This document shows positions 11,422 to 57,644 of a DNA stretch of 64,000 nucleotides, one piece after another. Origin of the DNA: Anaerolineales bacterium (lineage in GTDB: Bacteria; Chloroflexota; Anaerolineae; Anaerolineales; UBA4823); the NCBI GenBank assembly GCA_035286585.1, contig DATEDC010000099.1:3068-67067 (forward strand), given 5' to 3'. Numbering within the stretch: the stretch's first letter is position 1; the number at the start of each line of letters is the position of its first letter. A model generated the notes under the pieces. The model was not told the origin of the DNA and ran no database searches. It was given only the letters and a program-made list of their open reading frames with translations. The position numbers were made by a program, and so were the translations under genes.

Positions 11422-12259
11422 GCGAAATCCGCGGGATGCGACTTGCCTGCTGCTCCTGTTGAGCGTGTTGGCGGGGTGCACCTCAACCATTCCAGGTATC
11501 GATGCGCCTGAGCAAACAGTAACGGATACAGCGATACCGCTCTATTCGACTGCTACCCAGTCCAGCCTGACTCCCACAGAGGAGGTCGACCCATATTATC
11601 AGCGCCGTCTGAAGATGGTTGAAAACACCATTGAAGCGCGCGGTGTCCGCGATGCCCGCGTGCTGGAAGCCATGCGTAGCGTGCCCCGCCACCGCTTCGT
11701 CCCCGCTGACTACCTTGAATTCGCCTATGACGACAACCCATTGCCCATCGGTTACGGGCAGACGATATCCCAGCCATATATAGTGGCTTTAATGACCGAA
11801 CTACTCGATCTGACTCCCGGAGAAAAAGTACTCGAGATTGGAACCGGCTCCGGCTACCAGGCTGCCATCCTGGCGGCATGGGGTGGTCTTGAGGTCTACA
11901 GCGTGGAGATCATCCCCGAACTGGCTGAAAGCGCCGCTGCGCGCCTCCGGGAGCTCGCTTACACCGACGTCCAGGTTATGACCGCGGATGGTTACTTTGG
12001 CTGGGTAGAACACGCCCCGTTCGACGCTATTGTGGTCACAGCTGCTCCGGACCATCTCCCCGCACCCCTGGTCGAGCAGTTGGTGCCGGGTGGCCGCCTG
12101 GTCATTCCCATCGGTCCGCCAGGTGGTTTTCAGACTTTATGGAAATTTGTTTTTGAGAACGGCGAGCTAAAAGCCTATAACCTTGGATCGGTCGCTTTTG
12201 TGCCCTTTACCGGGAGCGGGATTGTCGGGGGGACCCCCGGGCCCACAATTTCTCCATAA
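11384..12259 (+). CDS. pcm: Protein-L-isoaspartate O-methyltransferase with a lipoprotein-type N-terminal extension
   Basis: VPRHRFVP...YDDNPLPIGYGQTISQPYIVALMTELL and SAM motif VLEIGTGSGYQAAILA. N-terminal LLLLLSVLAGC lipobox-like segment. Confidence 0.85.
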   Translation: MRSYSNYRWHIAERNPRDATCLLLLLSVLAGCTSTIPGIDAPEQTVTDTAIPLYSTATQSSLTPTEEVDPYYQRRLKMVENTIEARGVRDARVLEAMRSVPRHRFVPADYLEFAYDDNPLPIGYGQTISQPYIVALMTELLDLTPGEKVLEIGTGSGYQAAILAAWGGLEVYSVEIIPELAESAAARLRELAYTDVQVMTADGYFGWVEHAPFDAIVVTAAPDHLPAPLVEQLVPGGRLVIPIGPPGGFQTLWKFVFENGELKAYNLGSVAFVPFTGSGIVGGTPGPTISP

Positions 12260-14768
12260 ACCACGCGCCAGCATAACAAGCTGCTCCTAAACGCAGCACC
12301 CAGCCGAATCCAAACGAGAGGGCTAATAGAGCGGCTAACACAGCCGAAACTACTGATGCTGCGCCGTTAACCCCCCAACTCCAGGGTACGAGGGCGCGGC
12401 GACCTTCGGCTGCCAGGCGAGCAATCCCGGTGGGGAAGGGAAGTCCCATCAGGAAGCCAATCGGGGCGAGGATCAAGGCGGAAAATCCCAGCCTGGCTGC
12501 CAGGGATGCCCCCAGGGTGTTCTCGAAGAACTGCTTTCCCAGCAGTGGAAAACCCAATATGAAGACAACCAGCAAGGGCAGGACCAGAGGCGTAGAGATC
12601 CCCTGGCTGAAGCGGCTGCCTACTCCGGAGAAGAACAATAGTGAAAACAGCACCGTTGTGACGGCATAGGCTGGCTGTTCCAGGTAGAGGATAAACATCT
12701 GGATCAATGGGATTTCCACGAGTAAGAAAGCCAGCCCGACCAACCCAAAATATCCCAGCGGCATGATAGGGCTAACCTCGAAGGCGCTGCTAGCTTTACC
12801 GTCGCTGCCCTTCGTTCGGGCGACAGCCGCAGGAAGGAGGATCAACCCGCCTGCCAATACCGCCGCCAGTGCAAGCAGAGCTAATACGACAAAATAGCCT
12901 GCCCCCCCGAAAGGCTGCCAGGTCTTGCCAAATTCGGCTAAAACCTGCCTGGACTGTGACCACTTGAAATAGTGGCCGAAGAATGGACGATCATCGCTAG
13001 GGGGGCTGACATCGAAGGCGTAATCTCGATAGAATTGCCGGCGGTCATCCGTTGAGATCAAGGCGTTGAAGCTCTGGTAATACTCGTCTTCAGGAAGTAT
13101 ATTGAACTGATTGGCCTCTTGCGCCTGCATCCCTGGGACATACACCAGGTCGAACGCCCGGCTGGCGGCAAACGCTCGCACCAGTTCCAGTTCGCTGGCA
13201 GTAAATGCACCATTTTTCAGGTAAAGCGTTCCGGTGTTATAACTGCGGAAGGCAACCACACTCAGAGAAGGGTCAAGCCCGAGACGCTCCAGCGCGGTAA
13301 CGCCGATAGCAAAAGTACGCAGAAATTCGCTTGGAGGGGTCTGCAGCCAGCGGGTAACTACTAAAATACCGCCTGGGCGCAGGTTTCCAAGCGCATCCTG
13401 GAAGGATTCCACCGTATATCGGTATTCTTCAGCCAGGCTGTATGCGCCTGAGCGAACCGGGTGGTAGGCGCTGGTCAGGGAAATCAAGATCAGGTCGTAA
13501 TCCTGCAGCGATCGCCGCAGAAAGCTGCGCCCGCTGGCAGATACCGCATGCACATTCGGCAGAGTGTAAATGTGCTGGGAGGCGCTGACGATCAATGGGT
13601 TGACCTCCACTGCCATGACCTGCCCAGCTCCTTCAGCCAGAGCGATCAGGATATCTAACCCGCCGCGCGGTTCCAGGATGAGCGTCGTCGCCCGGGGGCG
13701 GAGCTGGTAAGCCAGAGAAGAGGGCATATAGGCGCTGAATGACAGATTTGCGCCCTCCCAAACAACCGGAGAGAGGTCATCGCCATCCACCAGGACCGCG
13801 TCTTGGGGTGGCGGCAGTTGCAGGAAGCGGTAGCTCAACCCGGGCAGCGAGCGAATGCCGGGGCTGCGGACCACATCCACGCGCGAGAATGCATTCCATG
13901 CCTGACGGATCAATTGGGCAGAAGGATACTGCAACGCGTACGACAAACCCTTATAAGGTGAGATGCGGAGCGCCATGAGGCTCAACCCATTTTTGCGAGC
14001 GAGGCGCAGGCTCACATCGCTGAGAGCGAAGACGAGCAAACTGACTAATACCGCCCAGCGGATTGATCCCTGGATTATCGCATATAGCCCCCAGCCCTGC
14101 CTTTGAAATCGTGGTATTCCATTCACCTGTCCTGTGAACAGCCAAATCATCCCCGCGCTCGCGGCTAACACGAGGCTCAAGGTGACCGTTCCTTCACCAC
14201 CGAGCAGATTGGGAGCAAACAGCGCCAGGAGGCAGCCAAAAGCGGATCCGACCAGATTGAAGGCATAGGTGAGCCCCGCCTGGTTGGCGTGGACGGTGAG
14301 GAGCAGCCCGGTGGCCAGCCCACTGAAGAAAAAAGGGCAGGCGAGGGCAACGTAATGCAGCACCAGGATCGCCAATTGCCGCTTATCCCAGGCTACGCTG
14401 AACGAGTCGAATGGCAGCCAGTTGGTCAGCAGGTAGGCAGTCAGCATGCTAACCCCAGACCCTAGCGCCAGCCAGCTCAGGCTCGAGTATGCCCTGTCGG
14501 CGGGAATCCGGGAGAAAAGCGCCAGGACCGTCCCGCTGGCGCCAAAGCCGAGCAGGGCAATGCTGACGATCATAAAAGCAAAATGGTAGAACTGCGCCAC
14601 CGAGAACAGCCGGGTCAGGTTGATCTCGTAGGTCAGTGTGGCGGTAGAAAGGAAGAACAAACCAAGCGCAGCTAAGCCGGAAAACAGCGGCGCTGGCTGG
14701 TGAGAATTGTTCGGTCTGTTAGCCATACCGTGTTTAGTCCGCCAACTGGCGCAACTGGCGATGCGCAA
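12207..14768 (-). CDS. Polytopic membrane protein with an embedded spermidine synthase-like (SAM-MTase fold) domain
   Basis: 853 aa. About 8 N-terminal and ~6 C-terminal TM helices flank a soluble domain (LILEPRGGLDILIALAEGAG..., YDLILISL...YSLAEEYRYTVESFQDALGNLRPGGILVV), as in fused MFS/spermidine synthase-like proteins. Confidence 0.55.
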   Translation of the reverse strand: MRIASCASWRTKHGMANRPNNSHQPAPLFSGLAALGLFFLSTATLTYEINLTRLFSVAQFYHFAFMIVSIALLGFGASGTVLALFSRIPADRAYSSLSWLALGSGVSMLTAYLLTNWLPFDSFSVAWDKRQLAILVLHYVALACPFFFSGLATGLLLTVHANQAGLTYAFNLVGSAFGCLLALFAPNLLGGEGTVTLSLVLAASAGMIWLFTGQVNGIPRFQRQGWGLYAIIQGSIRWAVLVSLLVFALSDVSLRLARKNGLSLMALRISPYKGLSYALQYPSAQLIRQAWNAFSRVDVVRSPGIRSLPGLSYRFLQLPPPQDAVLVDGDDLSPVVWEGANLSFSAYMPSSLAYQLRPRATTLILEPRGGLDILIALAEGAGQVMAVEVNPLIVSASQHIYTLPNVHAVSASGRSFLRRSLQDYDLILISLTSAYHPVRSGAYSLAEEYRYTVESFQDALGNLRPGGILVVTRWLQTPPSEFLRTFAIGVTALERLGLDPSLSVVAFRSYNTGTLYLKNGAFTASELELVRAFAASRAFDLVYVPGMQAQEANQFNILPEDEYYQSFNALISTDDRRQFYRDYAFDVSPPSDDRPFFGHYFKWSQSRQVLAEFGKTWQPFGGAGYFVVLALLALAAVLAGGLILLPAAVARTKGSDGKASSAFEVSPIMPLGYFGLVGLAFLLVEIPLIQMFILYLEQPAYAVTTVLFSLLFFSGVGSRFSQGISTPLVLPLLVVFILGFPLLGKQFFENTLGASLAARLGFSALILAPIGFLMGLPFPTGIARLAAEGRRALVPWSWGVNGAASVVSAVLAALLALSFGFGWVLRLGAACYAGAWFMEKLWARGSPRQSRSR

Positions 14769-14777: not shown

Positions 14778-15266
14778 TTAGAGATCCGAGTTCACCAGAG
14801 ACTCGGCCACCTGATCGTGGTTAATCGTCCCTACGCTGCGCCAGAGGGCTGCTCCCCGAGCATCGAAGAAGATGAAGGTAGGCGTGGCGATGACAGTAAG
14901 CTCTCGGGCCAGCGTCTTGCCGGCCGCCTCCTGCACATCCACGCGCAGGACAAGCAGCCGCCCGCTATATTCGCTCTCGATCCCATCCACGATGGGCCTG
15001 GCGGCCATGCAGGCTATTCAATACGGCGATTGGAATTCGAGCAGCACGGGTGTGCCCGCGCCGATCTGGCTGCGTAATTCAGCCAGGTCCGTGTGTGGGG
15101 TTTGCACGGGACGCAGGCGATACCAACCAAACAGCAGCCCAAAGGCCAGAAGGGCTAAGATCAGGAGACGTTCCAAGCTGAGACCGGGTCGCAAGAGAAA
15201 ATATCCTGCCAACAGCAGCACGAAAAGAATGAACAGCAGAGCGGAGTAGAGGTTAAAAGGGTTCAT
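14778..15266 (-). CDS. Membrane-anchored thioredoxin-fold protein with an in-frame TGA at the first position of the CxxC motif (U-I-A-C), a candidate selenoprotein or a nonsense pseudogene
   Basis: ORFs 15018..15344 and 14778..15008 share one frame and are separated only by TGA (15020-15018) plus three sense codons. The joined product reads ...TPVLLEFQSPY-[TGA]-IACMAARPIVDGIESEYSGRLLVLRVDV...ATPTFIFF..., which is a thioredoxin fold including the cis-Pro. There are two N-terminal TM helices, with a likely start at ATG 15266. Confidence 0.5.
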
Positions 15267-15465
15267 GGGATGAGGATAATGGAGAAGTGGAGAAGTGTCA
15301 ATAAGGCGAGCGCTTGTGTCCAGGACTTTCCCCTGCCTTTGCATTCACCCGGCAGCGTGTAATTTTCTTGTAATGATTCTGCAAGGTCTGGATAATCTTT
15401 CTGCTCTACACTAAGGTTTATTGCGCTCGTATAAACCCACTCAATATCCAAAGGAGGTAAAAACA

Positions 15466-15927
15466 ATGATCCGCAAAATTTCCCTGGTTCTCTCCGTTAT
15501 TGCCCTCAGCCTGCTGTTTGTCGTTCCTGCATTGGCTGACCCTGGCCAACCCAATTTTTCTCCTGGCTTGTATGGTGATGGCATGGTTTGGGGCACGAAG
15601 GGCGCCGCGATACTGCCCGCTCCCAGCGGCAATAACCTGGCTTCCTTCGATAAGCTGTTCGTCATCGTCAACAGCAACAATCCGATGGGGCAGTTGCCGG
15701 TGGCTGAAGCTGCGCCGGGCAATCCCGACTATAACGGCGGGCGCTGGTACACGCATACCGTGGAGTGGACAGCGGCTGGATTTGCAGACCATGGAATCGT
15801 GCCGGTGCTCACTTCTTACGCCCAGATTATGGTGCACTACAACCTGGGCCACCTCTCGATCACGCCGGGTTCACCTGCTGGCGGCCCGCCAGCCTTCTTC
15901 GAATGTCCGATGCTGCCAGTGAAGTAA
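15466..15927 (+). CDS. Secreted hypothetical protein
   Basis: ATG at 15466 preceded by AAAGGAGG. Signal peptide MIRKISLVLSVIALSLLFVVPALA. I recognise no family. Confidence 0.5.
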   Translation: MIRKISLVLSVIALSLLFVVPALADPGQPNFSPGLYGDGMVWGTKGAAILPAPSGNNLASFDKLFVIVNSNNPMGQLPVAEAAPGNPDYNGGRWYTHTVEWTAAGFADHGIVPVLTSYAQIMVHYNLGHLSITPGSPAGGPPAFFECPMLPVK

Positions 15928-16051: not shown

Positions 16052-16372
16052 TTAAACAGCTTCCCCCTCCAGAGGGTATCCCGCCGCATCCCATTCCGCC
16101 AATCCGCCGGAGTAGCGGCGCACATTCTTAAAACCGCGCTTGACCAGATATTGATAAGCCGCCTGGCTGGCGATACAGGCTGGATCAGAGCAATAAACCA
16201 CGATCTCTTCCTCGGGGTCGAGCAATCGGGCGGCGTCTTCCATGCGGCTGATGCTGATCGAGCCAGGGATGTGTTTGGCGTTGAACGCCCATTCGTTCAG
16301 GGTCATCACGAGTTTAAATTTTTCACCACGGTCGAGCTTGGCTTTCAATTCCTCCCGGCTGATTACATTCAT
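16052..16372 (-). CDS. Single-domain rhodanese-like sulfurtransferase
   Basis: 106 aa. It has HIPGSISI, an active-site loop VVYCSDPACIASQ and a GGLAEWDAAGYPLEG tail. It lies 17 nt downstream of the REC/TrxR-like gene. Confidence 0.8.
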   Translation of the reverse strand: MNVISREELKAKLDRGEKFKLVMTLNEWAFNAKHIPGSISISRMEDAARLLDPEEEIVVYCSDPACIASQAAYQYLVKRGFKNVRRYSGGLAEWDAAGYPLEGEAV

Positions 16373-16389: not shown

Positions 16390-18051
16390 TCATACTGTCT
16401 TCAGGTACTGGTGGATGAGGCTGACCGCGATAGCGCCCTCACCCACGGCGGAGGCCACGCGCCGCACCGCCCCCTGGCGCACATCGCCAGCGGCGAAGAT
16501 ACCCGGTACGCTGGTCTCCAGCAGATACGGGTCGCGCTGCAACGTCCAGTTTTTCGGACGCTTACCGTCCTGGTACAGATCTGGGCCAGTCAGCACAAAC
16601 CCGGCACGATTGGTTGCCACAACCCCATTCACCATTTCAGTATGGGGCACTGCGCCGATGAAGAGAAACAGGGCTGGCGTCTCCACTCGCAAGGTCTCCT
16701 GGGTCTGGTTGTTTTTCAGGGTGAGCGCCTCCAACTTGTTTTTCCCAAATGCTTCGACCACTTCTGTGTGCACCTGAATGTCGATGTTTTCCGTCGCGCT
16801 GATCTGGTCGATCAGGTATTGGGACATGGTAGCCTGCAGACCGCTGCCACGCACCAACATGCTCACCTGGCTGGCATAGCGGGAGAAGAACATGGCAGCC
16901 TGTCCGGCGGAGTTGGCGCCTCCGACAACATAGACATGCTGACCTGTGTAGTAGGCGGCTTCGGTAAGGGCGGCGCCATAATATACCCCCGCCCCGGTGA
17001 GATCCTTGATGCCCGGCGCGTCCAGCTGGCGAACGGTTACACCCGTCGCGATCATAAGCGCCCGGGCGCTTAATTCGGAGCCATCATCCAGGATAACGAT
17101 GCGATATGGTCCATCTACCCGGACCTTAACGACCTCCTGGGCGGTCAGAATCTCAGCTCCAAGCCGTCTGGCCTGATCGGTTGCCCGTCGCGACAAGTCA
17201 GCGCCGCTGATGCCTTTGGGGAAACCCAGATAATTCTCGATGCGGGAGCTGGTTCCGGCCTGTCCGCCGGTAGCCTCGCGTTCGATCAGTGCGGTGCGCA
17301 AACCCTCAGAGGCCCCGTATACCGCAGCCCCCAGCCCGGCTGGCCCAGCCCCAATGATGACCAGATCGTAAAAAGGCTGGGTTGCCTGGGTCTGCATACC
17401 GGCTTTCTCTGCCAGCGTGCGGAAGTCAGGTTCCACCAGGGTTGTCCCATCGGGGAAAAAGACTACTGGCAAACGATGTTCTCCCTGCAACACCGAATCC
17501 ACCAGTTCCTTGGCAACGCTATCCTGCTCGATATCCAACCACTGGTACGGGATGCGGTTGCGCGCCAGGAAGTCCTTTACCAGATGCGAGTGAGGCGACC
17601 AGAGTGTTCCCGCCACCCGAATGCCCTCATATGGCAGCGGGACTGTCGCCATCCAGTCGCTCAGCAATTCATCCAGGATGGGATACAGGTGTTGGTCTGG
17701 GGGATCCCAGGGTTTCATCAGGTAGTGATCCAAGCCAATGACGTTGATACTGGTGATGGCGGCCTCTGTGTCTGCATAAGCCGTCAACAGTACCTTGCGC
17801 GCCTCGGGATAATACTTTAGCGCCTGGGATAGGAATTCCGTCCCGCTCATCTCTGGCATACGCTGGTCAACCAGAAAAAGAGCTATCGGAGTGTTCCGTT
17901 TTTTGAATTCTTCCACGGCTTTTAGCGCCTCAGCGCCAGAGCCGGCTTTTACAATCCGGTAATCGCTGCGGTAATACTGGCGCAGGTCGCGTTCGATAGC
18001 ATTCAATACTTGCGGCTCATCATCGACCGACATTATGATTGGCTTTGCCAT
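16390..18051 (-). CDS. Fused response-regulator receiver / glutaredoxin-like / thioredoxin-reductase-like FAD flavoprotein (completely Cys-free)
   Basis: REC domain (SVDDEPQVL...LFLVDQRMPEMSG...K). A middle thioredoxin-fold segment has WSPHS where CPxC would sit. The TrxR-like domain has GAGPAGLGAAVYGASEG and GGANSAGQAAMF dinucleotide motifs and IFAAGDV. There is no Cys in the 553 aa. Confidence 0.8.
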   Translation of the reverse strand: MAKPIIMSVDDEPQVLNAIERDLRQYYRSDYRIVKAGSGAEALKAVEEFKKRNTPIALFLVDQRMPEMSGTEFLSQALKYYPEARKVLLTAYADTEAAITSINVIGLDHYLMKPWDPPDQHLYPILDELLSDWMATVPLPYEGIRVAGTLWSPHSHLVKDFLARNRIPYQWLDIEQDSVAKELVDSVLQGEHRLPVVFFPDGTTLVEPDFRTLAEKAGMQTQATQPFYDLVIIGAGPAGLGAAVYGASEGLRTALIEREATGGQAGTSSRIENYLGFPKGISGADLSRRATDQARRLGAEILTAQEVVKVRVDGPYRIVILDDGSELSARALMIATGVTVRQLDAPGIKDLTGAGVYYGAALTEAAYYTGQHVYVVGGANSAGQAAMFFSRYASQVSMLVRGSGLQATMSQYLIDQISATENIDIQVHTEVVEAFGKNKLEALTLKNNQTQETLRVETPALFLFIGAVPHTEMVNGVVATNRAGFVLTGPDLYQDGKRPKNWTLQRDPYLLETSVPGIFAAGDVRQGAVRRVASAVGEGAIAVSLIHQYLKTV

Positions 18052-26933: not shown

Positions 26934-28365
26934 GGTAGTGTATCTTTCATTCATGAAATACAAAAAGGGACTTGATCAACCTGTAAAATGTGGTTGCTAC
27001 CCCACAAGCCACAGGAGATCAAGTCATGCCGATTGTACCCATTGGGAGCCTTTTTCTGCAAGTACCCGCAAGCGATACACCAAGATTTGCACACGAATTG
27101 TGCGCTGTGCTGGAAGAGCAAATCCGACAAGTGGTTGGGCGCTGCCTGGAAGAAGCATTGGAAACCGAAGTTGAGCGATGGTTGGGGCGAAAGCGGCATG
27201 TGCGCCGACGGAAAACCAAAGGTCAGCGGGTCGAAGTACGCTGTAGCCGGTGCTTCAGTCATGAGCGGCGGCGTTTTCGGCGCAATGGGCACTACCAGCG
27301 TAGATTGGATACCCGCTGGGGACGGGTAAAGATCGACGTTCCGCAGCTGATCTGCGAGTGTGGTGGCAATGTGTGCCTTTCGTTTCGGACTTTGCGACGT
27401 GGGCAGCGCATTTGGCATGATCTGGAATGGGAAGTCCTTGTGAATTATGAGCGAGGCTTGAGCTACCGACAAATCAAAGCAGACTGGGATCAACTTCTGG
27501 GAAGTTCTGTTGGGTTACGCACGCTGAACCGACGAGTGCTGGCACTGGATAGCGACGGTTTGCCAGCCCGTCCTTGGATGAAAGGCGAGGTACCTCCTGT
27601 CGTCCGCCTGGATGGCATCTGGATTACGGTAATGTTCCCGACTGGCAAGACCCATACCGACCGGATGGGACGCAAACGCCTGGTCAAACACGCCAAGAAA
27701 GTCCCCATCCTGGCTGCACAGGGTGTCTGGCCCTTGAGCGAAAAGACCTGCTTGTTGGCCTGGGTTAGAGCGGATGGCGAAGACACTGCCAGTTGGCAGC
27801 AGTTTCTTGAACAATTGTACGAGGCTGGCCTCACCCCCAAGAACGGCTTGGCCTTGCTGGTAGCCGATGGCAGCCCTGGTTTGCTGGCTGCTCGCGAAAA
27901 TGTGTATTGGACGACCCCTTTGCAACGCTGTGTCTTTCACAAACTACGTAACCTCGCCCAAGCCCTCACCTTGCCAGCCAACCTCGATCGCCAGGCGGGA
28001 CGAGGGTATCGTACCCAATTCCTGCGCCAAGCCGCTCACATCTGGCAGGCCTCTACCGAAACCGAAGCCCGCCAGTGTTACGTCGTGTTTTCTCAGCAGT
28101 GGCAATCCGAACAACCGAAAGCCATCCGCACTTTGCAGAACGATTTTGAAGCCACCTTGACCTTCTATGCCGTTCAAGAGCAAGCCGCTGAACGCAACGA
28201 AGTCTGGCCATCTCATTTGCTACGCACCACCAGCCCTTTGGAACGCACCTTCCGGGACTTCCGTCGCCGTTATCGCCTGGCGGTCTTGTTTCACTCCGAT
28301 GCCGGCGCTAGATCTACCACCTCTCAATTGGCTGCCCGTTTTTCATGAACCAAGGATACACTAAC
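26934..28365 (+). mobile_element. IS256-family insertion sequence (1432 bp), apparently intact
   Basis: Terminal inverted repeats GGTAGTGTATCTTTCATTCATGAAA (26934-58) and the reverse complement of 28341-65, GTTAGTGTATCCTTGGTTCATGAAA, are 21/25 identical. It is flanked by the 8-bp direct repeat GATTCTTG. It carries a single Mutator/IS256-type transposase ORF that ends inside IRR. Confidence 0.85.
27026..28348 (+). CDS. IS256-family (Mutator-type) transposase
   Basis: ~440 aa from the ATG at 27026 (AGGAG 8 nt upstream). Family-typical C-terminal region: QRCVFHKLRNLAQAL ... RTTSPLERTFRDFRRR. Confidence 0.85.
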   Translation: MPIVPIGSLFLQVPASDTPRFAHELCAVLEEQIRQVVGRCLEEALETEVERWLGRKRHVRRRKTKGQRVEVRCSRCFSHERRRFRRNGHYQRRLDTRWGRVKIDVPQLICECGGNVCLSFRTLRRGQRIWHDLEWEVLVNYERGLSYRQIKADWDQLLGSSVGLRTLNRRVLALDSDGLPARPWMKGEVPPVVRLDGIWITVMFPTGKTHTDRMGRKRLVKHAKKVPILAAQGVWPLSEKTCLLAWVRADGEDTASWQQFLEQLYEAGLTPKNGLALLVADGSPGLLAARENVYWTTPLQRCVFHKLRNLAQALTLPANLDRQAGRGYRTQFLRQAAHIWQASTETEARQCYVVFSQQWQSEQPKAIRTLQNDFEATLTFYAVQEQAAERNEVWPSHLLRTTSPLERTFRDFRRRYRLAVLFHSDAGARSTTSQLAARFS

Positions 28366-28967: not shown

Positions 28968-29072
28968 CAGGCCGTCGATAAGGGCTGGGCAACTGGAGGC
29001 AAACATTTGCTACGCTTTTTGTCGCGCCTTGCTGGCCCTGTCATTCATATTTTTGCCAAGGAGAAAACTACC

Positions 29073-30122
29073 ATGATGATTATTATGCGTACCAACGCCA
29101 CCCCGGAGCAGATCGAAGAGGTGGTCAAGATCGTCCAGGCAAACGGATTGCGCGCTCACCTGTCTACCGGCGACGAGCGCACGGTGATTGGCGCCATTGG
29201 GGATGGACGCCCGGTGCAGAAAGATCAATTCTTCCATTTGCCGGGCGTGGATCGGGTTGTGCCCATTACCCGGCCATACAAGCTTGCCTCCCGCGAGTTC
29301 AAGGAAGCAAACACCGTATTTACTTTAGATGGCGTGACGGTCGGCGGGAATAGTATCGTGATCATCGCCGGTCCGTGCTCGGTGGAAAGCCGGAGCCAGC
29401 TCCTGGAGACAGCCCACGCGGTGCGCGAAGCCGGCGCGCACGCACTGCGCGGGGGCGCTTTCAAGCCGCGCACCTCCCCCTATTCATTTCAAGGCCTGGG
29501 AGAGGTCGCCCTGGAGATCCTGGCCGAAGCGCGCCAGGAAACTGGCCTGCCGATTGTGACTGAAGTGATGGCGATCGAGCAGATCCCCTTGCTGCTGCGC
29601 TATGCCGACGTGCTCCAGATTGGCGCCCGCAACATGCAAAATTACTCCTTGTTGCACGCTGCCGGAGAGAGCCAGCATCCGGTTCTGCTGAAGCGCGGTA
29701 TGTCGGCCACGGTAGAAGAGCTGCTCATGGCAGCCGAGTATATCCTCTCGCATGGCAATCGCCGGGTGATCCTGTGCGAGCGCGGCATCCGCACCTTCGA
29801 GACTACCACGCGCAATACGACCGATATCAATGCCATCCCGGTGTTGAAATCCTTGACCCACCTGCCCGTCCTGCTCGACCCCAGCCACAGCACCGGTTAT
29901 TGGGAGTTTGTCACCGCCATTGCCCGAGCCGGAATTGCCGCCGGCGCGGATGGCTTGCTGGTAGAGGTTCATCCGGACCCGGCTGCGGCTTACTCGGATG
30001 GGGGCCAGTCGCTCAAACCCGAGCGTTTTGCAGAACTGGTGCGCCAGGTCCGCCAGATCGCCCAGGCTGTTGGCCGCAGTGCAGCGCCGACTGTTGAAGC
30101 TGATAAAATTCAGGCTGGCTGA
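29073..30122 (+). CDS. 3-deoxy-7-phosphoheptulonate (DAHP) synthase, type I-beta with an N-terminal ferredoxin-like regulatory domain
   Basis: The N-terminal ~70 aa FL/ACT-like domain ([26 protein letters not shown]) is as in Thermotoga-type DAHPS. Catalytic barrel motifs are [24 protein letters not shown] and DPSH. The ATG at 29073 has an AGGAG RBS. Confidence 0.9.
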
Positions 30123-30997
30123 TGGAAAAACCAAGCGACCTGTCTTCCGTTACCATTGCCATCCTGGGCCTGGGCTTGATGGGGGGCTCGCTTGCCAGGG
30201 CACTGAAAGGCCGCTGCAGGAGGCTCCTGGCTTACGATCCTGACCCCGCAACCCTGGAGCTGGCCCGAGGCGAGCACATCGTCGATCGGGTTGCTTCCGA
30301 GCCGGGGGAAATTCTGCCTGACGCCGACCTGATCATCCTGGCCGCCCCGGTGCGGGCAATTATCACCCTGATCCAGCAATTGCCCGCCTGGCACCCCGGC
30401 GAGCCGGTAGTGATCGATCTGGGCTCCACCAAGGTCCAGGTTTGCCAGGCGCTGGCTGGATTGCCGGGGCGTTTCGATCCGCTTGGCGGGCACCCGATGT
30501 GCGGCAAGTCTGCCCATGGATTGGCGAACGCTGAAGCTGACCTGTTCCGCTACGCACCTTTTGCCTTCACGCCTCTGCCGCGCAGCGGCGAGCGCGCCCG
30601 AACCCTGGCGGTTCAGCTCGCGGAGGCGATCGGCGCTCGACCTCTCTGGCTTGACGCTGAGACGCACGACCGCTGGGTAGCCGCCACCAGCCATGCACCG
30701 TATCTGCTGGCTTGCGCCTTGACCCTGGCCACACCCAGAGAAGCCGCTCCATTGGTGGGACCGGGTTTTCGCAGCGCCAGCCGCCTGGCTGGCAGCTCGG
30801 CGATAATGATGGGCGACATCCTGCGCACCAACCGGGAGAACGTGCTCCTGGCATGCAGCCGGATCAAGGCTGAGCTGAAGGACATCGAGAGATTATTGTT
30901 CGAGGAGGATTACCCCGCCCTGATGAAATTATTGGAGGAGGTTGCAGCATACCGCCAGGCCATGGCAGAGGCTCCCATCCAGGAGACTGGACCATGA
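30122..30997 (+). CDS. tyrA: Prephenate (or arogenate) dehydrogenase
   Basis: NAD motif IAILGLGLMGGSLARAL and catalytic region GGHPMCG. Its start overlaps the DAHPS stop (TGATG). Confidence 0.85.
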   Translation: MEKPSDLSSVTIAILGLGLMGGSLARALKGRCRRLLAYDPDPATLELARGEHIVDRVASEPGEILPDADLIILAAPVRAIITLIQQLPAWHPGEPVVIDLGSTKVQVCQALAGLPGRFDPLGGHPMCGKSAHGLANAEADLFRYAPFAFTPLPRSGERARTLAVQLAEAIGARPLWLDAETHDRWVAATSHAPYLLACALTLATPREAAPLVGPGFRSASRLAGSSAIMMGDILRTNRENVLLACSRIKAELKDIERLLFEEDYPALMKLLEEVAAYRQAMAEAPIQETGP

Positions 30998-32349
30998 GGC
31001 TGACCGTGCAGCCTGGAAATCCTCTACGTGGGGAGATTACTCCTCCAGGTGACAAATCGATTTCACATCGGGCGGCTTTGATTGCCGCCCTGGCAGCAGG
31101 GGAAAGCCGGCTGGGCAATTTTCTGCTCGCTGGCGTCACCCGGTCCATGCTGGACGCCCTAACCGCTCTGGGTGTAACCTGGGAGCTTGACGGTGCCACA
31201 CTGAGCGTTCAGGGAGTGGGCCTGACTGGCTTGCGACCGCCTTCTGCTCCAATTGATTGCGGCCATTCAGCGACAACCATGCGCCTGCTGGCAGGCGCCC
31301 TGGCGGCCGCAGGGATTCCCGCGGTTTTGGACGGCTCGCCTGGCCTGCGCCGCCGCCCGATGGAGCGGATTATCGAGCCGCTGCGCAAGATGGGCGTCCC
31401 GGTCAGCGCAGAAAATGGAAGAGCTCCGCTCGTTTTCAGCCGCCGGGAGGCGCCGCTCGAACCACTGGAATATGCCCTGCCGGTCCCCAGCGCCCAGGTC
31501 AAATCCTGCCTCTTGCTGGCGGGGCTGGCTGCCGGCGGCTCGACTACCCTGACCGAACCCGGACCTTCCCGCGATCACACCGAACGCATGCTCCACAGCC
31601 TGGGCGTAAACGTGGTAAGCGCGAAGCGCAGCGGCAGCCTGAGCTACACGACATGCCTGGCGCCGCCTCGCCCATTCTCCCTTCCGCCTCTGAAGTTTAC
31701 ACTGCCGGGAGATATCTCCGCTGCGGCTTTCCTGATCGTGGCTGCCTTGATCACCCCAGGATCGCAGTTATTGCTGAGAGATGTCCTGCTCAATCCGACC
31801 CGCACCGGCTTTCTGGATGCCCTGCTGGCGATGGGGGCTGACCTGCGCATCTCCCCGGCAGGTGAGCGCCAGGGCGAGCCGCTGGGAGACATCCTCGTGC
31901 TCGCCTCGCCGCTGCGGGCAACGCATGTTTCGGGCTCCCTGGTGGTGCGCATGATCGATGAGTTCCCCGCACTTGCAGTAGCCGCAGCCTGCGCCCGCGG
32001 CCAGACCGTCGTTTCAGACGCCCAGGAATTGCGTTATAAAGAATCTGACCGCATCAACGCCATCTGCACTGAGCTGCAGCTCCTGGGCGTTCGCGCCCAG
32101 GAAACGCCGGATGGGTTCACGATATCTGGCGGGGGCTCCTCTCAGGGCGAGTCCTCGGGACGAGCCTTGCGGGGAGGCGAGGTCGCTTCGCACGGTGATC
32201 ACCGCCTGGCAATGGCGCTGGCCGTCGCCGGGCTGGCGAGCTCGGAGCCGGTGACTGTGCAATCGGCGGAGATCCTGTCCGAATCTTTTCCGGATTTCCC
32301 CGCGGCATTGAAATCTCTCGGAGCGCAGGTGCAGGTTGAACATGGGTGA
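30994..32349 (+). CDS. aroA: 3-phosphoshikimate 1-carboxyvinyltransferase (EPSP synthase)
   Basis: PGDKSISHRA, LPGDISAAAFL, KESDRI and DHRLAMA motifs. ATGA overlap with tyrA. Confidence 0.9.
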   Translation: MRLTVQPGNPLRGEITPPGDKSISHRAALIAALAAGESRLGNFLLAGVTRSMLDALTALGVTWELDGATLSVQGVGLTGLRPPSAPIDCGHSATTMRLLAGALAAAGIPAVLDGSPGLRRRPMERIIEPLRKMGVPVSAENGRAPLVFSRREAPLEPLEYALPVPSAQVKSCLLLAGLAAGGSTTLTEPGPSRDHTERMLHSLGVNVVSAKRSGSLSYTTCLAPPRPFSLPPLKFTLPGDISAAAFLIVAALITPGSQLLLRDVLLNPTRTGFLDALLAMGADLRISPAGERQGEPLGDILVLASPLRATHVSGSLVVRMIDEFPALAVAAACARGQTVVSDAQELRYKESDRINAICTELQLLGVRAQETPDGFTISGGGSSQGESSGRALRGGEVASHGDHRLAMALAVAGLASSEPVTVQSAEILSESFPDFPAALKSLGAQVQVEHG

Positions 32350-33238
32350 AGCCTCCCCAAAATTCTGGCAAATGGGCTTGCTGGGCTATCCCCTGGGGCA
32401 CAGCCTCTCGCCGCGGCTGCATGACTCAGCTTTGCAGGCTGCCGGGCTGGCAGGGGAATACCGCCTGCATGCGCTGCCGCCGGATGCGCCTGTTGAATTG
32501 GAGAGGCTGCTCGACCGGGTTCGCAGGGGCGAAATAGACGGCTTGAACGTAACTATCCCCTACAAACAAATTGTCCTGCCTGACCTGGATGAGCTCACGC
32601 CGGCCGCGGGCGCCATCGGGGCGGTAAACACCATTTACGCCCGCCAGGGCTTACTGGTAGGGGATAACACAGATGCGCCCGGTTTTTTGGCTGACCTGGG
32701 GCGCGTGACGGGATGGTCCCTGGCTGATCTGCGCCCGGCGGGGAGGGTACTACCTACTGCTCTGCTCCTAGGCGCTGGCGGCTCAGCCCGGGCGGTGGCT
32801 TATGCGTTGGGCACCGCCGGCTGGCATGTTTGGGTGGCTGCCCGCCGCCTGGAGCAAGCCCGCGAGCTCACCACCAGCCTGCGCAAGCGAATCTCTGCGC
32901 CCATCCATCACCTGACCCTGGCGAGTCTGCCGGTCTTGTTCAACGCAGTCGCGCCAAAATTCGACCTGCTGGTCAACACCACACCGCTAGGCATGGCGCC
33001 TGAGGTCGCCGCTTCACCCTGGCCGGAACGACTGGAATTTCCACTTGGCGCATTTGTTTACGATCTGGTGTACAATCCACCCGAAACCGCCTTGCTGCGA
33101 GCGGCGCGTGGCGCAGGACTGTCGGCTGCGAACGGACTGGGCATGCTGGTCGAACAGGCAGCCCTGTCTTTCGAACGCTGGACAGGCTGCGTCGCCTCGC
33201 GAGCAGCCATGTACCGGGCGGTTAGCTCAGAATTCTAA
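32342..33238 (+). CDS. aroE: Shikimate 5-dehydrogenase
   Basis: LLGYPLGHSLSPRLHD, GLNVTIPYK, NTD and LLLGAGGSARAV motifs. The start is uncertain among TTG 32336, ATG 32342 and a later ATG. Confidence 0.85.
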   Translation: MGEASPKFWQMGLLGYPLGHSLSPRLHDSALQAAGLAGEYRLHALPPDAPVELERLLDRVRRGEIDGLNVTIPYKQIVLPDLDELTPAAGAIGAVNTIYARQGLLVGDNTDAPGFLADLGRVTGWSLADLRPAGRVLPTALLLGAGGSARAVAYALGTAGWHVWVAARRLEQARELTTSLRKRISAPIHHLTLASLPVLFNAVAPKFDLLVNTTPLGMAPEVAASPWPERLEFPLGAFVYDLVYNPPETALLRAARGAGLSAANGLGMLVEQAALSFERWTGCVASRAAMYRAVSSEF

Positions 33239-33250
33239 GCGGAGTCGTCG

Positions 33251-34435
33251 ATGCTTTCCCCTGCTCGCCGCCTGGAGCGCTCATCCACGCAGTTCTTCGC
33301 CTCGCTCAACCAGCAGGTAGCCAGGCTCCAGTCCACCGGGAAGGAGGTCATCCGCCTGGACGTGGGCTCACCAGACCTGCCGCCCGCTGCTCACATTATC
33401 CAGGCTCTGGCGCAGGCTGCCTCCCGTCCGGACCGGCATGGCTACCAATCCCACAACGCCACGCCCGCCCTGCGGGCTGCCTGGGCGGGGATGTATCTGC
33501 GCCTGTATGGGGTGGAGCTGGATCCTGAGGCCCAGGTCGTCCCGCTTTTAGGCTCCAAGGAGGGCATCTTTCATCTGTCCCTGGCGCTGGTGGAGGAGGG
33601 AGAGTTCGTCTTGATCCCCGATCCCGGCTACCTGACCTACACCCAGGGCGCCCTGCTGAGCGGTGGAGCGCCGTACTACCTGCCCCTCACCCCCGAGCGC
33701 GGATTTTTACCTGACCTGGCGGGGATTCCGCCGGAGGTTGCCCGCCGCGCCCGGCTGCTGTGGTTAAATTACCCCAACAACCCCACCGCGGCGATAGCGC
33801 CGCCAGAGTTCTTTGTCGAGGCGGTTGAGTTTGCCAGAAGGTACGATCTGCTGGTCTGTCACGATGCAGCCTATGCACAGGTCGCTTTCGACGGCTACCG
33901 ACCTCCCAGCCTGTTAGAGGTCCCAGGTGCAGAGGAGATCGCAATCGAGTTCAACACCCTGTCCAAATCACACAACATGGCGGGCTGGCGGGTAGGCGCT
34001 GCCCTGGGCAACCCTGAAGCGCTGCGCCTGCTTTACAAGGTCAAGACGAACGCCGACAGCGGGCATTTTTTGCCGATCCTGGAGGCTGCCACGGCTGCGC
34101 TGAGCGGAGACCAGAGCTGGCTGGAAGAGCGCAACGAGATCTACAGCCGGCGGCGCGACCTGCTGGTCGCCGGCCTGCGCCGCCTGGGATTCGCGGTGGA
34201 GAGCCCGCGAGCCTCTCTCTACGTCTGGTGCCCGGTCCCTGATGGGTGGAGTTCCAGCGAGTTCGCAGCCGCTTTGCTCGAGGAGGCGTATGTCAGCCTT
34301 ACGCCAGGCGTAGTTTTTGGACCAGGCGGCGAAGGGTTTGTGCGCATCACCCTGACCCAGACGGAAGAGCGCCTGGCGGTAGCCCTGCAGCGCCTGGAGA
34401 ACTGGATTTCGAAGGGAGGTCAGCGTGCCGCTTAG
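33251..34435 (+). CDS. Class I/II PLP-dependent aminotransferase (candidate aromatic/prephenate aminotransferase)
   Basis: NYPNNPTAA and the FNTLSKSHNMAGWRVG PLP-lysine motif. It is embedded in the aro/tyr operon. Confidence 0.8.
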   Translation: MLSPARRLERSSTQFFASLNQQVARLQSTGKEVIRLDVGSPDLPPAAHIIQALAQAASRPDRHGYQSHNATPALRAAWAGMYLRLYGVELDPEAQVVPLLGSKEGIFHLSLALVEEGEFVLIPDPGYLTYTQGALLSGGAPYYLPLTPERGFLPDLAGIPPEVARRARLLWLNYPNNPTAAIAPPEFFVEAVEFARRYDLLVCHDAAYAQVAFDGYRPPSLLEVPGAEEIAIEFNTLSKSHNMAGWRVGAALGNPEALRLLYKVKTNADSGHFLPILEAATAALSGDQSWLEERNEIYSRRRDLLVAGLRRLGFAVESPRASLYVWCPVPDGWSSSEFAAALLEEAYVSLTPGVVFGPGGEGFVRITLTQTEERLAVALQRLENWISKGGQRAA

Positions 34436-35612
34436 ATTTCTCACCGCAGGCGAATCTCATGGACCTGCCCTGACGGCGATCCTGGAAGGTTTGCCGGCAG
34501 GATTAACCGTCAAAGCTGAGCAGATCGATGCCGAGCTCGCCCGCCGCCAGCGAGGTTACGGCGCCGGGCCACGGATGAAAATCGAGCAGGATCGGGCGCG
34601 CATCCTGGCGGGCGTCATGCAGGGAGTGACTACTGGCTCCCCTCTGGCTTTACGAATCGAAAACCGCGATCACGCAAGATGGCGCGGACGGGCAATCGAG
34701 CCTCTCACCATTCCGCGACCAGGCCACGCCGACCTTACCGGAGCGTTGAAATATGGCTACCGCGATCTCCGTCCCGCCCTGGAGCGCGCCTCCGCCCGTG
34801 AGACCGCAGCCCGTGTGGCGGTCGGCGCGGTTTGCAAGCAACTGCTCGCTCAATTTGACATGCAAATCGGCGGCTACGTGGTAGCGATTGGCGAGATCGA
34901 GGCCGACCTGGAGTCTCTATCCCTGGTCGAGCGCCTGGAGCGGTCTGAGGAATCGGAGGTGCGCTGCCCGGACGCTCAGGCTGCCCAGGCGATGCGCCAG
35001 CGCATCGAGGAGATCATCCGCCTGCGTGACACGCTTGGGGGGGTGCTCGAGATCGTCGCGCTGGGCGTGCCGCCGGGGTTGGGGTCGTACATGCATTGGG
35101 ACCGCCGCCTGGAGACGCGCCTGGGCGCGGCCGTGCTGAGCGTGCCGGCGATCAAGGGCGTGGAGATCGGGCCGGCGTTCCGAAACGCCCGCCTGCCCGG
35201 CACGCAGGTCCAGGATGCCATCCGGTTGGAAAGGGGAGAGCTGACTCGCGAGAGCAACCGCGCCGGAGGAGTGGAAGGGGGTATTACCAACGGGCAGCCA
35301 CTGCTGATCCGGGCGGCGATGAAACCCATCGCCACCACGCTCACGCCGCAGAAATCCGTCGATCTGGCGCAAGGCCGCCGGGTTGACACCCAGTACGAGC
35401 GGTCGGACTTTTGCCCGGTGCCGCGGGCGGTGCCTATTTTAGAAGCGGTGATTGCCTTTGTGCTTGCCGACGCCCTGCTTGAAAAACTCGGCGGCGATTC
35501 GCTGGATGAGATGCTGCCGCGCTTTTCTGCGCTGCGCCGCGCCCGCCTATCCGACCTGCCGATGGACGATATTGCGCACACATTTTGGCCTGAAGAAGCG
35601 GATGATGACTGA
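34425..35612 (+). CDS. aroC: Chorismate synthase
   Basis: LRFLTAGESHGPAL, GRSSARETAARVA-like (ERASARETAARVA) and GGISNG-like (EGGITNG) motifs. GTG start with GGGAGG upstream. Confidence 0.9.
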   Translation: MPLRFLTAGESHGPALTAILEGLPAGLTVKAEQIDAELARRQRGYGAGPRMKIEQDRARILAGVMQGVTTGSPLALRIENRDHARWRGRAIEPLTIPRPGHADLTGALKYGYRDLRPALERASARETAARVAVGAVCKQLLAQFDMQIGGYVVAIGEIEADLESLSLVERLERSEESEVRCPDAQAAQAMRQRIEEIIRLRDTLGGVLEIVALGVPPGLGSYMHWDRRLETRLGAAVLSVPAIKGVEIGPAFRNARLPGTQVQDAIRLERGELTRESNRAGGVEGGITNGQPLLIRAAMKPIATTLTPQKSVDLAQGRRVDTQYERSDFCPVPRAVPILEAVIAFVLADALLEKLGGDSLDEMLPRFSALRRARLSDLPMDDIAHTFWPEEADDD

Positions 35613-37215
35613 TCGGCAATTTGCCGCAAGCGATAAGCCGCCTCTCCATGCCCCTCTCTTCCTGTATGGCCCCCCCGGTTCGGGAAAAAGTGCCTTGGGC
35701 AAGGCACTGGCACAGGCCCTGAATTTACCATTTTGTGACCTGGATGAGGAAATAGAAGCTCGTACCGGGCAGAGCATCGCTCAGATTTTCTCCCAGCAGG
35801 GCGAAGAGGCTTTCCGCCGGCTCGAGAGAGAAATGCTGGAAAAATACCTGGAGAGAAAAGAACGGGTGGTCGCGCTGGGCGGCGGCGCCTTGCTGGACCC
35901 CGGCTCGCGCCTCAGGGTAGAAGCTTCCGGGCGGGTGATCTGCCTGCGCGCCTCTCTCACGCTGCTGCTAGAGCGCCTGAGATCGGAGGCAGAGAGGCGC
36001 CCATTATTAGCTGGAGAGCTTTATAACCAACTGGCGGATATATTGGCCAAGCGCGAGGGGCATTACGCCTCCTTTTCCATTCAACTCGATGTGGACGGCA
36101 AATCCCCGGGTGACCTGGCCTGGCAGGCGCAGGTGCTGCTGGGGCGCTATCACCTGAGAGGCATGGCGAGCGGACTTTTCCCCGGCTGCGAAGTTCGCGT
36201 CCAGGCTGGTAGCCTGGTTGAAGTGGGTGAATGCCTGCGCATCGACGGCCTGGGCGGCCCGGTTGCTGTGGTCAGCGATGCAAACGTCGCCCGGTTGTAC
36301 GCCCCCCAGGTGATGAAATCTTTGGAGGAGACCGGTTACGCAGCCAGCCTGGTGGAGATCCCCGCAGGAGAAGAGCAGAAAAACCTGAGGACTGTTGAGC
36401 GCCTGTGGGCGAGCTTTCTGACCGTGGGGCTGGATCGCGCTGGCACGGTCGTTGCCCTGGGCGGGGGGGTGGTAGGGGATTTAGCCGGCTTTGCAGCGGC
36501 GATATACCTGCGTGGGGTAGGCTGGGTTTCTGTTCCCACCACTTTGCTGAGCATGGTGGATGCCAGCCTGGGGGGCAAAACCGGCGTCGACCTGCCGCAG
36601 GGCAAGAACCTGGTCGGTTCTTTCCACCCGCCGCGCCTGGTTTTGGCAGACCCTGATACCCTTGAGTCTTTGCCCCCCGAAGAGCTGCGCAGCGGCATGG
36701 CTGAAGCGATCAAGCATGGCTTGATCGCCGACCCCGAGCTTTTTTCGCGCTGCGCCCAGGGCTGGGATGCGGTCGCCGCGGACTGGGATTGGCTGGTGCG
36801 ACGGGCAATGGCGGTCAAAATCCAGATTATCGAAGCCGATCCGTACGAGCGCGGCCGCCGCGCGGCGCTCAATCTCGGTCACACCCTGGGACACGCCATC
36901 GAACGGGCTTCGGATTACCGCCTGCGTCATGGCGAGGCGGTGGCGATTGGCATGCTCGCCGCTGCCCGGCTGGCTGTTCGCCTGGAGATGGCCCCGGCAG
37001 AGCTGGCATCCCGGCTTGAAGCCGTCCTGCGCGGCCTGGGGTTGCCGCGGCGCATCCCGGAAAACCTGGATCGGGATAAGATCCTGGAATACATGGGTGT
37101 GGATAAAAAGCGCGCTGGCGGGAAGCCTCGCTTCGTCCTCCCTGTGGGCGTGGGCGAGGTGCGTGACGGGATCGAGGTGGACGATCCCGCCCTGATATTT
37201 GAAGAGGTAACCTGA
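35602..37215 (+). CDS. aroK/aroB: Bifunctional shikimate kinase / 3-dehydroquinate synthase
   Basis: N-terminal P-loop LYGPPGSGKSALGKALA...FCDLDEEIE (shikimate kinase). C-terminal DHQS motifs: GGGVVGDLAGFAAA, PTTLLSMVDASLGGKTGVD and LNLGHTLGHAIE. The ATG at 35602 overlaps the aroC end, and the ORF-track N-terminal extension is unlikely. Confidence 0.85.
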   Translation: MMTDRQFAASDKPPLHAPLFLYGPPGSGKSALGKALAQALNLPFCDLDEEIEARTGQSIAQIFSQQGEEAFRRLEREMLEKYLERKERVVALGGGALLDPGSRLRVEASGRVICLRASLTLLLERLRSEAERRPLLAGELYNQLADILAKREGHYASFSIQLDVDGKSPGDLAWQAQVLLGRYHLRGMASGLFPGCEVRVQAGSLVEVGECLRIDGLGGPVAVVSDANVARLYAPQVMKSLEETGYAASLVEIPAGEEQKNLRTVERLWASFLTVGLDRAGTVVALGGGVVGDLAGFAAAIYLRGVGWVSVPTTLLSMVDASLGGKTGVDLPQGKNLVGSFHPPRLVLADPDTLESLPPEELRSGMAEAIKHGLIADPELFSRCAQGWDAVAADWDWLVRRAMAVKIQIIEADPYERGRRAALNLGHTLGHAIERASDYRLRHGEAVAIGMLAAARLAVRLEMAPAELASRLEAVLRGLGLPRRIPENLDRDKILEYMGVDKKRAGGKPRFVLPVGVGEVRDGIEVDDPALIFEEVT

Positions 37216-39132: not shown

Positions 39133-39352
39133 CCTGCCTGGCTTTCGCCCGAAATCCGGCGGCGCATGAGTTCGAGATTGGCGGGGAAGAACAGATTATA
39201 TGGGCTTATTTTACCTTATTGACATGCGGATAGCCTGGTTTACAGTTGTTTCGTGTACAATAAGCCTGGTTGGTTTGAGCGCGGGGAAGGTCCCCATCAT
39301 ACCGTCAGCACACCTCAGCATGTGGAGTTTTTAGGTGACAGCTAAGACAGCT

Positions 39353-40309: not shown

Positions 40310-40339
40310 TCCTGCTGCGCCAACCAGGAAGGAGAATAT

Positions 40340-48067: not shown

Positions 48068-48111
48068 AGACCAGGCAGGTATGTTTTGGCAGTAAAAAAT
48101 CTGCCTGGTCT
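48068..48111. terminator. Hairpin between convergent genes
   Basis: 11-bp stem AGACCAGGCAG (48068-78) / CTGCCTGGTCT (48101-11) with a 22-nt A/T-rich loop. Confidence 0.4.
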
Positions 48112-57628: not shown

Positions 57629-57644
57629 TTCGCAGCAAATGATT

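Follow-up and report, generated by a model that had tools for sequence, protein, structure and literature searches.

A mis-annotated thioredoxin-fold gene of Anaerolineales with an in-frame UGA: a probable membrane-tethered selenoprotein and its covarying, putative SECIS hairpin

We describe a gene on the minus strand of a 64,000-nucleotide stretch of DNA from an Anaerolineales bacterium (assembly GCA_035286585.1, contig DATEDC010000099.1; the whole stretch is referred to below as the window), in which a single TGA codon interrupts the frame of a membrane-tethered thioredoxin at the position of its first catalytic cysteine (Cys). Our results indicate that this UGA is very probably recoded in dependence on a selenocysteine insertion sequence (SECIS), most likely as selenocysteine (Sec or U), and that the gene belongs to a well-known selenoprotein class, as a new and mis-annotated member or subfamily. 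All five features of selenoprotein genes examined here were found: pairing of Sec with Cys among homologues, selection acting downstream of the TGA, a hairpin that fits the bacterial SECIS (bSECIS) model, covariation of this hairpin specific to TGA forms, and local recoding of the codon. The gene and its two key codons are located as follows.

14778..15266, minus strand: predicted selenoprotein coding sequence of 162 codons plus TAA, with Sec at codon 83 (from the sequence, the reading frame, the match to Pfam PF00085 and the start).
15018..15020, minus strand: in-frame TGA, the predicted Sec codon, residue 83, corresponding to the first (nucleophilic) Cys of CxxC (from the homologue column and TGA conservation).
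15009..15011, minus strand: TGC, the resolving Cys of U-I-A-C, residue 86 (the C86 column is invariant in the homologue alignment).

The frame runs from the ATG at 15266 to the TAA at 14780-14778, and its sole internal stop is the TGA at 15020-15018, which stands in the context ...TPVLLEFQSPY-TGA-IACMAARPIVDGIESEY... (with the shorter flank, ...VLLEFQSPY-TGA-IACMAARPIVDG...). Re-reading of the frame bears out a preliminary description of this DNA, which had reported two minus-strand open reading frames (ORFs) in the same frame, split by this one codon. It had also correctly placed the TGA at the nucleophilic Cys of thioredoxins, where it aligns with the Cys of Cys-type homologues, and had noted that the resolving Cys (15011-15009) and the cis-Pro (the Pro codon of TPTF, 14882-14880) are retained. 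The likeness to WCxxC drawn on that occasion holds for the position of the Cys; Sec is preceded by Tyr, whereas the classical WCGPC has Trp. The start of the protein, MNPFNLYS, agrees with the homologue consensus MxxxxNxYS. In GenBank and JGI the locus is represented by two ORFs of 82 and 76 amino acids, and the NCBI entries for the organism are HLA98013.1, 'hypothetical protein', and HLA98012.1, 'thioredoxin family protein'. Two ORFs (UCH59793.1 and UCH59794.1) are likewise given for the gene in CP070639.1, the complete chromosome of a metagenome-assembled genome (MAG). The annotation error is systematic: MAGs in GenBank show the gene as a 'hypothetical protein' and, separately, a 'thioredoxin family protein' that is truncated.

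The organism is represented by four metagenome contigs from independent assemblies; all have the TGA, and they show 0-2 mismatches over the gene. A database search yielded 159 homologues, and every one that was inspected or aligned has Cys at the TGA column, with the exception of P0060; in the 43 aligned sequences, which share the motif LLEFQSPYC[ILMV][AG]C, this Cys is invariant. Where names are given, the homologues are called 'thioredoxin family protein' or 'thiol-disulfide isomerase', and where NCBI gives an organism, it belongs to Anaerolineae/Chloroflexota, one being labelled Bacteroidota. P0060 is a 94-residue fragment that ends at the same codon and represents the N-terminal half of a relative encoded at metagenome locus L001. 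The protein of L001 is about 80% identical to that of the window, and its gene contains the same in-frame TGA followed by an intact downstream frame. Between these two genes the ratio of nonsynonymous to synonymous substitution rates (dN/dS) is 0.22 upstream of the TGA (dS 0.59) and 0.20 downstream of it (dS 0.48). The part of the gene behind the apparent stop is therefore translated and under selection. An alignment of homologues at the TGA column, as suggested in the preliminary description, thus reveals both Cys/Sec pairing and conservation downstream of the TGA.

Metagenome contigs were further scanned by the exact pattern GARTTYCARTCNCCNTAYTGANNNGSNTGY, which gave at least 120 loci; among those listed, all but the chance match L090 encode an EFQSPY-TGA-xxC protein with a complete downstream thioredoxin domain. 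A species-level scan, using the same pattern with TGA, TGC or TGT and one genome per species, returned 103 genomes, in which the codon is TGA in 68, TGC in 25 and TGT in 10 cases. Record titles, considered for 80 of the 103 genomes, all denote Anaerolineales, Anaerolineae or Chloroflexota MAGs, save two that say only 'bacterium'. Sec forms occur in several MAGs of Longilinea and Candidatus Villigracilis. The pooled scans comprise at least 163 unique TGA genes, 150 of which reach a terminator. The cis-Pro motif is kept in 148 of these 150 complete genes, and 100 of them terminate at another TGA. As one TGA is read through while another terminates in the same mRNA, the codon is recoded locally and not reassigned. 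In the window itself, the 49 long-ORF terminators comprise 23 TGA, 15 TAA and 11 TAG codons. TGA forms of the gene (Sec forms) range down to about 40% identity. When Sec and Cys forms are placed on a rough neighbour-joining tree, they intermingle, with no fewer than 13 switches between them, and some TGC/TGT forms (L203, L205, L154) are 85-87% identical in protein to TGA forms, which points to recent Sec/Cys switches.

The RNA element proposed to direct the recoding is a short hairpin inside the coding sequence.

14980..14998, minus strand: putative SECIS hairpin, with core stem 14996-14991 paired with 14987-14982 and loop GUG at 14990-14988 (from covariation and minimum free energy, MFE).

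In the window, the core of this hairpin is CCCAUC-GUG-GAUGGG (14996-14982), with the loop beginning 27 nt after the UGA, and two extra pairs, 14998-14997 with 14981-14980, form past a bulged A. The whole structure lies within codons 90-96, its 15-nt core encoding P91-I-V-D-G95. The bacterial SECIS model demands a loop of 3-9 nt, an upper stem of 4-16 bp and a G in the first two loop positions, at a distance of 16-37 nt from the UGA and with an MFE of -7.5 kcal/mol or lower (PMC13188914); the limits given in the preliminary description were the right ones. With a 3-nt loop that starts with GU, a stem of 6-8 bp, a spacing of 27 nt and an MFE of -8.4 kcal/mol, the window hairpin lies inside this range in every respect.

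Comparison across the family was based on 93 distinct 72-nt segments around the TGA, aligned without gaps (alignment A1), in which hairpin columns 29-36 and 40-47 correspond to window positions 14998-14980. Pair 33-43 is C-G in 79 sequences and U-A in 14, and pair 34-42 is G-C in 55, A-U in 33 and G-U in 5; neither is unpaired in any sequence. The covariation score of the hairpin is 0.206 versus 0.114 after shuffling (none of 500 shuffles reached the observed value), and slid controls scored at most 0.10. At the level of codons, Ile encoded by AUC is accompanied by Asp GAU in all 33 cases, while with Val or Ala (GUC/GCC) the partner Asp codon is GAC in 54 sequences and GAU in 5. Pro CCU is paired with an AGG or AAG codon in 14 of 14 sequences; the synonymous change of the Pro codon is matched here by a change of amino acid, from Gly to Arg or Lys. 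Sequences with an internal C-A mismatch (Glu GAG) gain an outer G-C pair in 24 of 25 cases (Fisher p = 7e-9). Not fewer than 6 of the 8 hairpin pairs form in every aligned sequence, and the loop starts with GU in all of them. Since the stem is built from the codons of P-[IVA]-V-D-[GERK] (K occurring once), RNA pairing constrains the choice of amino acids as well as of synonymous codons.

The Cys forms present a different picture. All six core pairs are found in 40 of the 68 Sec-type genomes versus 2 of the 35 Cys-type genomes; pairs 33-43 and 34-42 are present throughout the Sec forms (100%) but in 54% and 63% of Cys forms, respectively; and the mean hairpin MFE is -8.45 kcal/mol in Sec forms and -2.60 kcal/mol in Cys forms. 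Of two hairpins drawn in the preliminary description, this second one had been put forward as the SECIS, and the proposal is upheld, as the hairpin is conserved, covaries, occurs only with TGA forms and fits the published model. The first one (14992..15008, minus strand) can indeed be drawn in the window sequence; it is not conserved, the structure being specific to the window lineage. We rejected it as a part of the element: 50.5% of its cells are paired, equal to the shuffled mean, and 92 of 500 shuffles reach its covariation score. It is probably irrelevant, because it is unconserved and overlaps the real hairpin. The lower stem of the MFE fold of the window is also unconserved across the family.

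The read-through product, of about 18 kDa, has two predicted membrane helices and one redox domain.

15192..15251, minus strand: predicted transmembrane helix 1, residues 6-25 (from a hydropathy scan; helix 9-27 in the AlphaFold2 (AF2) model of homologue P0001).
15120..15167, minus strand: predicted transmembrane helix 2, residues 34-49 (from the hydropathy scan; helix 32-52 in the AF2 model of P0001).
14802..15077, minus strand: thioredoxin-fold domain, residues 64-155, including the cis-Pro motif T128-P129-T130 (TPTF) (from PF00085 and AF2).

With U written as C, the product matches the Pfam Thioredoxin family (PF00085) over residues 64-155 with 39 bits, the cut-off being 23.5, and its redox motif is Y-U-I-A-C, from U83 to C86. 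This match and the two hydrophobic helices agree with the earlier notion of a two-transmembrane protein with a thioredoxin domain. A hydropathy scan detected two hydrophobic segments in 182 of 184 family members. The AF2 model is that of the Cys homologue P0001, which is 50% identical to the window protein (predicted local distance difference test score, pLDDT, 85). It consists of two long N-terminal helices and an alpha-beta-alpha-beta-alpha-beta-beta-alpha thioredoxin domain, whose CxxC (85-88) follows strand 76-81 and starts helix 86-101. In the PDB, this model comes closest to spinach thioredoxin m and E. coli TrxA (TM-scores, normalised to the target, of 0.73-0.82); DsbD-gamma (1uc7) stands lower down the list. 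In the 182 family members, the loop between the helices contains on average 2.87 K+R versus 0.69 D+E residues, and the segment after helix 2 is neutral. Because the loop is positively charged, the positive-inside rule suggests that it is cytoplasmic and that the redox domain probably faces outward, on the outer face of the membrane.

Models of individual thioredoxin types fit the protein less well. TIGR01068 (TrxA equivalog) scores 40.9 versus a cut-off of 96.8 bits, and NF006898 and NF008229 (TrxA/TrxC) score 30.2 versus 138 and 26.7 versus 125; judged by its sequence, the protein is not a canonical TrxA. A Pfam search of the protein found PF13098 below its cut-off (24.4 versus 27) and no match to Redoxin or AhpC-TSA. 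A search of NCBIfam returned only generic thioredoxin/DsbD models, all below cut-off, and no selenoprotein 'exception' family (SaoT, HUIPC-motif Trx-like, VPGUxxT). The two-helix membrane subfamily has no NCBIfam model of its own.

Several observations weigh against interpretation of the gene as a selenoprotein gene. RNAalifold found no consensus structure in the 93-sequence 72-nt alignment, and in view of this result the hairpin was tested as a named structure. No Rfam SECIS family matched, either at the gathering cut-off or at E <= 10; we would not expect short in-frame bacterial hairpins among Rfam models. The single-sequence fold of the 51 nt following the UGA is not unusually stable (z = -0.9), so that the RNA evidence is comparative only. 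Moreover, the stem also encodes the conserved peptide P-[IVA]-V-D-[GER], so that its conservation is partly protein-level; covariation at synonymous sites and the difference from Cys forms argue against protein-level constraint as the full explanation. The components of Sec insertion, selA, selB, selD or tRNA-Sec, were encountered neither in the 64-kb window nor in about 1.29 Mb of related loci, which with at most 14.7 kb each cover a tiny fraction of the genomes, so that this is not evidence of absence. Topology and function of the protein are predictions, and no redox partner is suggested by the genes that adjoin it across the family, which encode an EF-G-like GTPase and an unannotated protein of some 305 residues.

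The individual searches for Sec machinery gave the following results. ARAGORN detected tRNA genes neither in the window nor in 121 loci. When E. coli SelA, SelB and SelD were compared by tblastn with the window and the 1.29 Mb of loci, the only match was a single weak one to a GTPase domain. Pfam annotation of 52 window ORFs revealed neither Sec machinery nor a second selenoprotein, and a Sec/Cys-pair scan of all loci turned up off-frame artefacts only. In the literature we found nothing direct on Sec machinery in Anaerolineae; selenoproteins have been reported in Chloroflexi/Chloroflexota (PMC1794560; PMC13326102; PMC13582414).

Alternative explanations of the interrupted frame have to be considered. 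A TGC/TGT-to-TGA mutation might have killed a Cys-type thioredoxin gene, in line with the two ORFs shown by gene callers and GenBank and with the frequency of Cys-type homologues. Such a nonsense pseudogene, which the preliminary description had already considered the less likely explanation, is scarcely conceivable given that at least 163 distinct genes, with identities as low as about 40%, share the TGA and that 148 of 150 retain an intact downstream domain, that purifying selection acts downstream of it (dN/dS 0.20) and that a TGA-specific hairpin covaries. Alternatively, the gene might be truly split, termination at the TGA and nearby re-initiation producing an 82-amino-acid membrane anchor and a thioredoxin fragment of about 76-79 amino acids. 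An ATG is indeed present 3 codons past the TGA in the window and immediately after it in L001, and NCBI calls the second ORF a 'thioredoxin family protein'. However, the codon after the TGA is mostly ATT, ATA, CTG or CTT, not a start codon, and the residue it encodes is I, L, M or V in a mix similar in Sec and Cys forms. The fragment would be devoid of the attacking residue and of the first strand of the fold, and the covarying hairpin found only in TGA forms would be left unexplained; we consider a split gene very improbable.

Other explanations accept read-through of the UGA and differ in what is inserted or why. SECIS-dependent recoding could insert Cys by means of tRNA(ReC), or the hairpin could promote near-cognate read-through (Trp or Cys) without SelB. 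According to PMC13582414, tRNA(ReC), reported in some bacteria, decodes UGA as Cys with a downstream SECIS (Vargas-Rodriguez et al. 2018, cited therein); sequence alone cannot reveal the inserted residue, and the Sec and Cys forms of this family interchange often, with their at least 13 switches. Still, the same source places tRNA(ReC) in about 17% of Sec-type genomes overall and about 2% of those outside the UxxU subgroup, and does not report it for Chloroflexota. Were the product the same as that of TGC, it would be difficult to account for the preference of the whole lineage for TGA (66% of species), and the hairpin, with its loop starting G-U, fits the SelB-type model. Insertion of Cys or SelB-independent read-through is in our opinion improbable, although less so than a split gene. 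As the source of the window is a MAG, we also considered a sequencing or assembly error and a global reassignment of TGA (genetic code 4 or 25), for which nothing specific speaks. Either is hardly thinkable: four independent assemblies contain the TGA, which is at the same time the commonest long-ORF terminator in the window and the terminator of 100 of the 150 complete Sec-type genes of this very family.

We therefore favour SECIS-dependent insertion of Sec and suggest the following mechanism. The hairpin at 14998-14980 (loop GUG), 27 nt downstream of the UGA, would act as a bacterial SECIS and recruit SelB with Sec-tRNA(Sec) to the UGA, so that the ribosome would insert Sec and not terminate. 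The resulting protein would be a membrane-tethered thiol/selenol-disulfide oxidoreductase, in which the selenolate may attack substrate disulfides and Cys86 may resolve the mixed selenenylsulfide.

Thioredoxin-like Sec/Cys pairs are an established bacterial class, in the literature as in the preliminary description (PMC13188914). The Sec thioredoxin (Trx, PF00085, UxxC) figures among the prokaryotic selenoprotein families that have been verified by experiment, with WP_010956703.1 as an example (PMC13188914), and has been reported in Treponema denticola, Geobacter, Anaeromyxobacter and Carboxydothermus (PMC1794560). Other thioredoxin-fold UxxC families have been predicted, some of them extracytoplasmic (PMC13188914; PMC1088965; PMC1794560). 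The window protein shares with Sec thioredoxin the Pfam family, Sec in the first position of UxxC, the resolving Cys and the cis-Pro; both have a SECIS within the coding region just downstream of the UGA (a putative one in the window), and Cys-type homologues coexist with Sec-type ones. It differs in having two N-terminal transmembrane helices with a probably extracytoplasmic domain, in the family motif Y-U-[ILMV]-[AG]-C in place of W-C-G-P-C, in scores far below the TrxA equivalog cut-offs, and in its occurrence in Chloroflexota, mostly Anaerolineales, where record titles give the phylum. With the extracytoplasmic UxxC proteins of the thioredoxin superfamily it has in common a site of action probably outside the cytoplasm and prediction from Sec/Cys pairing and a bSECIS; those proteins are soluble periplasmic or single-anchor ones of other subfamilies, whereas the window protein appears to be anchored by a two-helix hairpin.

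The prototype of the bacterial SECIS model is the SECIS of E. coli fdhF. Like the consensus of this model, the element described here has a small apical loop starting with G-U, an upper stem of 6-8 bp, a spacing of 27 nt and an MFE not above -7.5 kcal/mol; unlike it, the element has a very short loop (3 nt) and no conserved lower stem or internal loop. A membrane-associated thioredoxin fold that is predicted to face outward also recalls the DsbD gamma domain and ResA/CcmG-type reductases, with weak similarity (NF001419, E = 1e-5; 1uc7). In contrast to DsbD, the NF001419 score is 24 versus a cut-off of 330 and there is no DsbD or CcdA membrane domain; in contrast to DsbD, ResA and CcmG systems, no CcdA or cytochrome-maturation genes occur among the conserved neighbours. 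Distinctive of the present family are the two-helix anchor, the YUxxC motif, the restriction to Anaerolineales-type Chloroflexota, the majority of Sec forms and the minimal SECIS. We tentatively propose, at slightly less than even chances, that it represents a subfamily of selenoproteins that is lineage-wide in Anaerolineales and so far uncatalogued: a two-helix-tethered thioredoxin with its selenol outside, in which Sec is the majority state (66% of species) and possibly the ancestral one, and in which a minimal, 19-nt in-frame SECIS constrains the choice of amino acids (Gly, Arg, Glu) and codons.

Anaerolineales are abundant and poorly cultured bacteria of sediments, groundwater and wastewater sludge. 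Our results indicate that Sec decoding is widespread among them. If the proposal of a lineage-wide subfamily is true, much of this order would depend on selenium for a redox function of the cell envelope, and public annotation would be systematically missing the gene. The family also offers a clean natural data set, in which one small protein occurs in about 160 Sec forms and numerous Cys forms, with repeated switching and a minimal SECIS, useful for studies of the origin and decay of SECIS elements and of the constraint imposed by RNA structure on coding sequence. The understanding of selenoprotein function is left unchanged, and a specialist will not be surprised.

The neighbourhood of the gene varies. 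In 115 loci (e.g. L151, L154) a GTPase of about 690 residues, EF-G-like by eye, is divergently oriented upstream of the thioredoxin gene, and 68 loci have, downstream on the same strand, a gene for the protein of about 305 residues. In the window, a gene for an 853-residue multi-pass membrane protein without Pfam or NCBIfam match (12207-14768, minus strand) starts about 10 nt past the end of the selenoprotein gene; the two adjoin only in L001, L045, L051 and L157. About 1 kb upstream lie a 553-residue protein in which a response-regulator receiver is fused to a glutaredoxin/mycoredoxin-like segment and a thioredoxin-reductase domain (16390-18051, minus strand) and, after it, a small rhodanese (16052-16372, minus strand), which is weakly similar to the rhodanese selenoprotein families NF041203 and NF045694 but has Cys; their linkage to the selenoprotein gene is limited to the closest relatives. 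As synteny with the 853-residue protein, the rhodanese and the reductase fusion is confined to the closest relatives, no functional operon can be claimed. A 168-residue ORF (15421-15927, plus strand; 153 residues in other assemblies) matches no family and has a hydrophobic N-terminus; it is divergent from the selenoprotein gene and conserved in 6 loci only.

Two other pairs of ORFs separated by an in-frame TGA in the window were checked, and on these two our judgement of such pairs rests; neither is a selenoprotein. The pair at 39335-40753 encodes two unrelated domains, an aldo/keto reductase followed by DUF2087, and that at 48111-52178 consists of two separate genes in the same frame.

The remaining observations concern distant parts of the window. 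A compact operon of aromatic amino-acid synthesis (shikimate pathway) at 29007-37215, plus strand, comprises genes for DAHP synthase, prephenate dehydrogenase, EPSP synthase, shikimate dehydrogenase, an aminotransferase, chorismate synthase and a shikimate kinase/DHQ synthase fusion; its G+C content is 0.61-0.64 versus 0.51-0.55 in neighbouring DNA, and a Mutator-family transposase (26990-28348) lies just upstream of it. A molybdenum/tungsten cofactor riboswitch (Rfam RF01055, 54 bits) at 57636-57815, plus strand, directly precedes ORFs for an FmdE-family protein (57874-58512, plus strand) and a TauE/SafE-family membrane protein (58509-59273, plus strand), which is not the usual setting of molybdate-transporter or molybdenum cofactor biosynthesis genes. 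At the window edge (61843-63994, minus strand), a cytochrome b561-like membrane protein adjoins a multihaem c-type cytochrome with c7/c3/MtrC-like matches.

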